Origin: Escherichia coli
GTDB taxonomy: Bacteria; Pseudomonadota; Gammaproteobacteria; Enterobacterales; Enterobacteriaceae
Length of the DNA stretch: 64,000 nt
Reading direction: 5' to 3' (one strand)
NCBI RefSeq assembly: GCF_003334385.1
Contig: NZ_QOWN01000012.1
In this document: positions 11,925 to 12,373 of the stretch, one piece after another
Numbering within the stretch: position 1 is the first letter of the stretch
Layout of the letters: each line of letters begins with the position of its first letter
The notes under the pieces: generated by a model
What the model saw: the letters and a program-made list of their open reading frames with translations, nothing else
What the model was told of the DNA's origin: nothing
Database searches by the model: none
Program-made: the position numbers and the translations under genes

Positions 11925-11966
11925 TACCAGTCCTGTGACTCAATGAAATCCATTGATTTATCGAAT

Positions 11967-11989
11967 ATAAAACCACCATATGGACAGCT
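11967..11989. promoter_or_regulatory. Perfect 9-bp inverted repeat ATATGGACA-gctat-TGTCCATAT, 43-65 bp upstream of the helicase-PLD start codon; candidate operator
   Basis: Read directly from sequence. Confidence 0.35.
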
Positions 11990-12329
11990 ATTGTCCATAT
12001 TGAAAAAGTTGGATGCAATGTTTTGTTTATAATTCGGTATCAAATGTACTGGTTGTACAAGGTTCAGAACACAAGCACATTCAACAGTACGTCAGGACTA
12101 TTGATTTCATAACAGTGAATACATTTTTTACCGTTTATAATGACTGCCTGTGTTGGACAAGGATACCAGAACAGCCGAAAACACCGGGGGTTATTACCTG
12201 CTCTCATGGAAACCAGATATTCCTGGTGCTAATCACAGTCATAAATAGCCTGAAGAACATGACGAAGGGACTTTAATGGAAGCCGGAGTAACTTGCCAGA
12301 ACATCAATCTTCGTCATCATTTACAAAGA

Positions 12330-12373
12330 AAAATAATCAGTTAAAGCAGTCCGGGCAATCAGCCCGGACTGCT
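12330..12373 (-). terminator. Intrinsic terminator after integrase gene (AGCAGTCCGGGC-AATC-AGCCCGGACTGCT)
   Basis: 12-bp perfect stem directly after the int stop, followed by a T-rich tract on the minus strand. Confidence 0.6.

Follow-up and report, generated by a model that had tools for sequence, protein, structure and literature searches.

The locus considered here raises a simple question: does the perfect inverted repeat found upstream of mkoC, a helicase-nuclease gene of Escherichia coli, serve as the operator of a dimeric repressor, as a preliminary description of this DNA had proposed, or does its symmetry have a more ordinary origin? The material is a single stretch of 64,000 nucleotides, hereafter the window. 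A comparison of mkoC upstream regions makes it probable, though by no means assured, that the repeat belongs to an ordinary weak mkoC promoter, of which the -10 and start region form a palindrome in one lineage, with no dedicated regulator being involved.

In this part of the island the window DNA is identical to that of E. coli G1/2 and of 15 other complete genomes. The gene order is speC, yqgA, tRNA-Phe (pheV), an integrase, a 451-nt spacer, the 1171-aa mkoC, IS debris and sigA, and the yqgA-pheV-int order agrees with the RefSeq annotation of the identical G1/2. The features framing the repeat are the following:

13836-13911, minus strand: tRNA-Phe (pheV), the island integration site (ARAGORN; Rfam tRNA, 68 bits)
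12376-13638, minus strand: P4-like tyrosine integrase of the pheV island (NCBIfam NF007246, 249 bits; annotated as tyrosine-type recombinase/integrase)
12344-12374, no strand assigned: 13-bp G+C-rich hairpin, probable integrase terminator (100% complementary; terminator-like match)
12031-12343, no strand assigned: pheV-island-specific spacer with no recognisable feature, lacking where mkoC occurs at leuX or in Citrobacter
8409-11924, minus strand: mkoC, Mokosh type II defence gene, 1171 aa (PADLOC and Pfam)

The spacer had been described as AT-rich and as set apart from the integrase by a strong hairpin. Both points hold: its G+C content is about 0.38-0.41 as against ~0.48 in the flanks, and the hairpin, perfect over its 13 bp, lies directly after the integrase stop codon. 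The complete intergenic space (451 nt, 11925-12375) is a mosaic of three pieces differing in their distribution. The integrase-proximal end (~12285-12375) is ~83% shared with other integrase alleles that carry other cargo, the middle (~12031-12285) is found only in this pheV junction, and the ATG-proximal piece is the one that other copies of mkoC retain (see below). A search of 11500-14200 against Rfam at a permissive threshold returned the tRNA alone, and no plasmid homologue was found for the spacer between 12025 and 12345. None of the spacer ORFs (12013-12276, plus strand; 12064-12207, minus strand; 12293-12535, plus strand) has a PHROGs match or is annotated by PGAP, and the one at 12013-12276 has no PADLOC or NCBIfam match either. 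In other strains, matches to the spacer break off beside IS1 (~12214), IS3 (~12121) and IS1/IS5 fragments (~12144). These three break points (loci L002, L003 and L021) all lie upstream of the predicted mkoC promoter, and in strain E6, which has such an IS-adjacent break, mkoC is intact. Beyond mkoC, the pheV island (window 1-8400) contains IS66, IS3 and IS110 debris, a TraF remnant and, at 2081-5938 on the minus strand, the serine-protease autotransporter gene sigA.

The gene downstream of the spacer had been taken to encode a helicase-PLD protein, and it is indeed a full-length mkoC. Residues 1-1169 of its product align with positions 1-1135 of the 1136 of PADLOC profile PDLC03924 (1690 bits), and the Pfam domains AAA_11 (272-491), AAA_12 (777-969) and PLDc_2 (1028-1138) are present; no DNA-binding domain is recognisable in MkoC by Pfam. 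An N-terminal/central SF1 (Upf1-like, COG1112) helicase and a C-terminal PLD nuclease are thus joined in one protein, the same single-gene architecture as that of Mokosh type II (Millman et al. 2022), from which the gene shows no difference. It is a known type of anti-phage gene, and an anti-phage role is predicted for this copy from its sequence. MkoC appears to stand alone, no flanking gene or ORF family being common to more than two of 12 loci, from which it follows that no regulator is linked to mkoC. The preliminary description had likewise seen no regulator gene nearby, and none is present in the RefSeq annotation of the identical strain G1/2. As for the fate of other copies, mkoC has become a pseudogene in several strains, being frameshifted in the O104:H4 strain examined (L020) and frameshifted or truncated in APEC E956 (L023) and CUVET25-1155 (L022). 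In the leuX context (L001, 4350-5575), mkoC is preceded by a 125-aa ORF, the PHROG match of which is weak and RNase H-like, and by a gene for an HNH endonuclease, while downstream of it comes a gene for a restriction endonuclease; such a neighbourhood looks like a defence island, unlike the pheV setting.

A perfect 9-bp inverted repeat with a gctat spacer does exist upstream of the helicase-PLD gene, but 11 nt away from the position first given for it: not at 11967-11989, or 43-65 bp upstream, but at 11978-12000, which is 54-76 nt upstream of the A of the mkoC ATG (11924, minus strand). Two 9-bp arms, ATATGGACA (11978-11986) and TGTCCATAT (11992-12000), enclose the 5-nt spacer gctat (11987-11991):

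11978-12000, no strand assigned: dyad ATATGGACA-N5-TGTCCATAT, spanning about -17 to +6 of the predicted promoter

One perfect dyad of this size is unremarkable in itself, because chance alone yields, in Markov-1 simulations, 2.3 perfect inverted repeats (arms of 9 bp or more, loop of at most 10) per 64 kb; the window has a total of 15, mostly terminators. For this particular 415-bp stretch, the expectation is ~0.015 perfect dyads. Within the 64-kb window the dyad has no second match, even with three mismatches, its 6-bp core with two mismatches is not enriched, and neither are its half-sites with one mismatch (18 observed, 12.6 expected). An arm-type site of the integrase was also considered and rejected: the integrase gene stands between the dyad and the tRNA junction, and half-sites are lacking around both the integrase and the tRNA.

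What the dyad lies upon is best seen from its homologues. A scan of representative genomes yielded 15 loci and, with E. coli alleles added separately, 18 upstream regions were aligned, representing about 12 independent Enterobacterales lineages with MkoC proteins 62-97% identical to that of the window. The contexts compared (pheV with an integrase, leuX without one, Citrobacter, Tatumella, Erwinia and Phytobacter) have in common no more than the 105-135 nt immediately ahead of the ATG, and for this reason mkoC is taken to carry its own promoter. The leuX copy (LWY24) is a case in point: it has no integrase and other neighbours, and keeps only the ATG-proximal piece, at ~91%; Citrobacter does likewise. 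For homologues below 60% identity (Arsenophonus, Pseudomonas, Vibrio and Ruegeria), the upstream DNA is unrelated. The preprint of Millman et al. reports that E. coli is protected by Mokosh systems whose constructs retained the native intergenic DNA, and this agrees with a self-sufficient promoter.

What does not vary across the 18 regions is TTG(C), followed after 16-17 nt by TGGACAAT. The following elements are proposed, in the order in which RNA polymerase would meet them:

12020-12030, minus strand: A-rich tract TAAACAAAAC, UP-element-like, directly upstream of the putative -35
12013-12018, minus strand: putative -35 TTGCAT (TTGCGA in most relatives), assigned by conservation and fixed spacing
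11990-11997, minus strand: conserved block TGGACAAT, with the putative -10 GACAAT at 11990-11995
11981-11983, minus strand: predicted transcription start in the conserved yCAT, 7-9 nt downstream of GACAAT
11925-11980, minus strand: conserved 5' UTR, with TTTTATAT at 11965-11972, AAATCAAT-N-TTT at 11946-11959 and a Shine-Dalgarno AGGA at 11931-11934

No sequence departs from TTG, and at least 90% of the 18 have the C after it; GACAAT follows at a distance of 16 nt, which in the pheV allele is 17 nt. In UTI89 (NC_007946.1), the predicted start corresponds to about 4780038-4780040, plus strand. The block TGGACAAT, which comprises the left arm of the dyad and the first two loop bases, is invariant in its first seven bases, TGGACAA (18/18), and its last T is changed solely in the frameshifted pseudogene copy of APEC E956, which reads GACAAA. 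GACAAT stands 61-66 nt from the ATG across homologues. Of the yCAT columns, A and T never vary and at least 90% of the sequences have the C; AACAA(A/T) in the A-rich tract is partly conserved. In the conserved leader (57 nt) the relatives share TTTAyA, AAAyCAA-N4-TT and a Shine-Dalgarno GGA, the AGGA of the window lying six nt ahead of the mkoC ATG, and RNAalifold gave no consensus RNA structure for it.

Two hexamers thus stand at the 16-18 nt spacing of sigma-70 promoters (17 nt in the window, 16 nt in relatives). In a PWM scan, the TTGCAT/GACAAT pair was the best or second-best, at the same position, in seven of nine independent homologues. The match to consensus is weak, however, at 3/6 for the -35 and 4/6 for the -10 (7/12 in total); the window promoter scores 6.1 bits, the median best score in shuffled sequences being 8.6, and a promoter scan program reported nothing on the minus strand at this place. 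Since the hexamers are weak and were missed by that scan, it is conservation and spacing alone that point to them. The likeness to sigma-70 promoters extends to a -10 in which positions 2 and 6 are still A and T, and to a conserved pyrimidine-purine step 7-9 nt downstream of GACAAT; in contrast to the classical extended -10, the invariant TG before GACAAT sits one position closer. A block of eight bases so strongly conserved normally exceeds what a -10 element needs, and this counts against reading it as a promoter. The literature searched yielded no usable start-site map for UTI89, CFT073 or O104:H4, nor any description of the mkoC promoter or leader, and nothing usable on Mokosh regulation or on the dyad motif.

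Some other features of this region deserve mention in their own right. In the promoters of the 62-68% clade, an inverted repeat TGCGA-N6-TCGCA covers the -35 and spacer (alignment columns 23-39, e.g. L007 ~205-221, L016, L009, L017 and L006). Its arms are conserved while the middle six bases vary, and it resembles a CRP-type half-site pair (TGTGA-N6-TCACA); judged by conservation, it is more operator-like than the 9-bp dyad, and in the window allele it is degraded (3/5 pairs). The mkoC leader (11925-11980) is conserved well beyond what a protein identity of 62-68% would lead one to expect. Its invariant AAAyCAA-N4-TT, preceded by the A/T block TTTTATAT, fits the IHF consensus WATCAA-N4-TTR. 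The window allele only has, in addition, a 6-bp inverted repeat in the leader, TCAATG-gattt-CATTGA, at 11940-11956. On the plus strand, 11991-12019 contains a mirror promoter-like pair (TTGTCC, 17 nt, TGCAAT; PWM 7.6), in which the right arm of the dyad serves as -35 and the minus-strand -35, read as its complement, as -10. It might give rise to a divergent transcript entering the spacer, where no gene is evident.

Watson-Crick pairs of the dyad were counted by hand on the upstream alignments, with the following result:

Window allele, its loop variant and E. albertii: 9/9 pairs
EV36 / CFT073 / UTI89 allele: 8/9 pairs
leuX allele, Citrobacter and UBA7338: 5/9 pairs
64-68% clade (E. coli, Enterobacter, CwR94): 3-4/9 pairs
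Erwinia and Tatumella morbirosei: 5/9 pairs
Phytobacter: 6/9 pairs
Tatumella JGM118: 7/9 pairs

The two intermediate cases, Tatumella JGM118 (7/9) and Phytobacter (6/9), use different outer pairs. With G-T counted as a pair, pair 47-55 is kept in six and pair 46-56 in nine of 17 distinct sequences, and a shuffle control places the pairing within the range for unconstrained related sequences. Symmetry of both half-sites is not maintained across the orthologous promoters, 9 or 8 pairs being confined to the pheV allele. The left arm owes its conservation to the putative -10 region within it; the right arm, which covers the predicted start, varies apart from yCAT.

Among 5,426 complete E. coli genomes, about 750 have the pheV-type promoter. 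The exact 47-mer of the window occurs in 17 of these ~750 and the EV36 version in 340; extrapolating from a sampled listing, about one fifth of the pheV-type genomes have the 9/9 dyad, the rest being mostly 8/9. The leuX-type promoter (5/9) is present in ~143 E. coli genomes and the distant type in ~41, so that many genomes retain mkoC behind a rudimentary palindrome or none at all; in the leuX copy examined (LWY24), the gene is intact. Between the pheV and leuX (L001) alleles, the coding sequence (8409-11924) differs by 2.6% and third codon positions by 4.7%; for promoter and leader (11925-12018), the difference is 9% outside the dyad and 22% in the dyad arms. Either change has been faster upstream than at silent sites, or the upstream region has a different history.

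If the dyad were bound by a repressor acting in trans, further sites might be expected. The preliminary description had suggested a search for the same dyad elsewhere in the genome. A permissive 47-nt BLAST, which is blind to other spacers, found no second site, the median being one place per genome and the maximum two in the 5,426 E. coli genomes. In viral contigs, the dyad with 8-bp arms has seven matches, in unrelated contexts and at or below a rough chance estimate; one is the same 21-mer with the E. coli loop variant, and it lies within a coding region of an unrelated element. On the phage contig IMGVR_UViG_3300018405_000021 (L030, ~1935-1994), two copies of GGACAACGTATGTCCATA stand ~40 nt apart between ORFs. 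They are plausible repressor sites with the same half-site, and no link to E. coli was found. In metagenome contigs at least 120 loci match, and at least 13 of them are this same mkoC promoter. No second enterobacterial context of the dyad was recognised among the metagenome matches listed, the others being unrelated contexts and two REP-like families.

These two palindrome families are, among the metagenome matches listed, AAATATGGACAC-GSC-GTGTCCATATTT (at least 25 sites) and ATATATGGACAT-CSG-ATGTCCATATAT (at least 20 sites). Some of the palindromes are paired ~680-700 nt apart around a 223-aa ORF with an HUH-like PNHYHLL motif (L050, 5526-6232, and L121, 8312-9018; also L044, L058, L084 and L137). 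From the motif alone, the ORF may be an IS200/RAYT-type transposase, and the palindromes look like REP-like hairpins. They share the arms of the dyad because the search pattern required them. As REP/IS200-RAYT-like hairpins, these environmental palindromes differ from the dyad in their 3-nt loops, longer arms and unrelated hosts. As for the dyad itself, E. coli genomes have it in one place (median), and no HUH/Y1 gene lies nearby.

That the dyad is an operator acquired in the pheV lineage, to which an unlinked dimeric repressor of host or prophage origin would bind at -10/+1, keeping mkoC low until relieved, is a reading that I regard as rather unlikely. Of the earlier proposal that expression is regulated, two elements stand: the helicase-PLD gene does have its promoter in this stretch, and the dyad, at about -17 to +6, occupies an effective position for a repressor, ideal for blocking RNA polymerase. 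An inverted repeat over the core promoter is what one sees in repressor operators, and LexA boxes and the phage CI/Cro operators offer a likeness in a perfect dyad that lies, here, across -10/+1 with a 5-bp spacer. Judged by the outgroup, the leuX-type 5/9 is ancestral, and symmetry would have risen from 5/9 to 8/9 (EV36-type) and on to 9/9 (window-type). The pheV and leuX alleles differ by four arm substitutions, all of them transitions and all pair-creating. The direction of these changes carries no weight, because the site was picked as perfect, and a test can address only how many there are: the four changes among 18 arm positions correspond to p = 0.009 against the third-codon-position rate (4.7%) and a borderline p = 0.08 against the local non-coding rate (7/75). 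This excess is suggestive of an operator, yet statistically weak and post hoc. Likewise, every pheV-type sequence read has the inner 8 bp of each arm intact, the variation falling on the loop and the outermost pair, but the metagenome copies were chosen by an intact-arm pattern and provide no test of arm conservation. On the other side, and differently from LexA, CI and Cro, a cognate regulator and a second site were looked for without success here, and the symmetry is not conserved. No regulator gene is linked to mkoC in any context, and none is found among the neighbours, in the island annotation or in the domains of MkoC; searches of E. coli genomes, of the window, of viral contigs and of the metagenome matches listed brought up no second site; the symmetry is missing in the leuX allele and in more distant orthologues; and the 9/9 form is a minority allele. 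The proposal that a perfect dyad of this size marks a dimeric repressor site finds no support in the orthologues, which keep the left half (TGGACAAT) and lose the symmetry. To our knowledge, the dyad resembles no E. coli operator consensus. The fuller statement that the pheV lineage (E. coli and E. albertii) recently gained the palindrome because an unlinked repressor gates mkoC is more doubtful still, and I consider it unlikely.

Two other explanations do without a repressor of this kind. The palindrome may be a matter of chance, with the real promoter elsewhere in the spacer and TGGACAAT being something different, such as a TGGACA of the -35 kind or a half-site recognised by a general DNA-binding protein. 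The number of 9-bp repeats expected by chance in 64 kb (~2.3) agrees with this, TGGACA fits the -35 consensus at 5/6, and a conserved TTTTATAT block follows downstream. However, the hexamers 16-18 nt from TGGACA have no A at -11 in the window allele, and the TTGC conserved at a fixed 16-17 nt upstream is left in need of explanation; altogether, a misplaced promoter is quite improbable. The pairing of TGGACA as -35 with the TATAT block as -10 was tried and rejected, the spacing of 20-22 nt being variable and too long. The dyad might otherwise act in RNA, transcripts started upstream folding into a hairpin followed by GGUGGUUUUAUAUU and acting as a terminator or attenuator of low strength, or as a 5' stem-loop that stabilises the transcript. 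A terminator scan does flag the dyad on the minus strand, and the hairpin of the window allele has a predicted -11 kcal/mol (z-score -2.3). Against this, the hairpin is lost both in the leuX allele, which reaches -4.3 kcal/mol, no better than shuffled sequences, and in the 64% clade. Intrinsic terminators have a stable, conserved, G+C-rich stem and an adjacent U-run, but only three of the nine stem pairs are G-C here, and the U-run begins 5 nt beyond the stem. In addition, the conserved -35/-10 would put the start in the right arm and leave the left arm untranscribed, and the candidate promoters further upstream sit in DNA missing from other copies of mkoC. A function in RNA is therefore very improbable, the least probable of these accounts.

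An ordinary promoter is likelier than a repressor switch, for the relatives keep the promoter elements and not the palindrome. On this explanation, the dyad would lie across the core of mkoC's own weak sigma-70-type promoter, the minus strand reading, in order, an A-rich tract, the -35 (12018-12013), a 17-nt spacer, the -10 (11995-11990), the start (~11983-11981) and the leader. The right arm would be free to evolve save for yCAT. Perfect symmetry would then be a young trait of the pheV allele of E. coli and E. albertii, needed neither for the retention of the gene nor for its expression, and mkoC would be transcribed at a low constitutive level.

To sum up, mkoC is a known defence system with a promoter and leader of a familiar kind, and the findings as they stand are unsurprising to a specialist. 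They nonetheless offer a probable placement for the promoter of a widespread single-gene defence system, which moves with ~105-135 nt of its own promoter and leader; such a placement is useful for cloning Mokosh type II or for measuring its expression. Should the dyad prove to be an operator after all, a defence gene would be under repressor control in one lineage only, a lineage-specific rewiring of defence-gene regulation with a bearing on the way in which cells manage the cost of their immunity genes.
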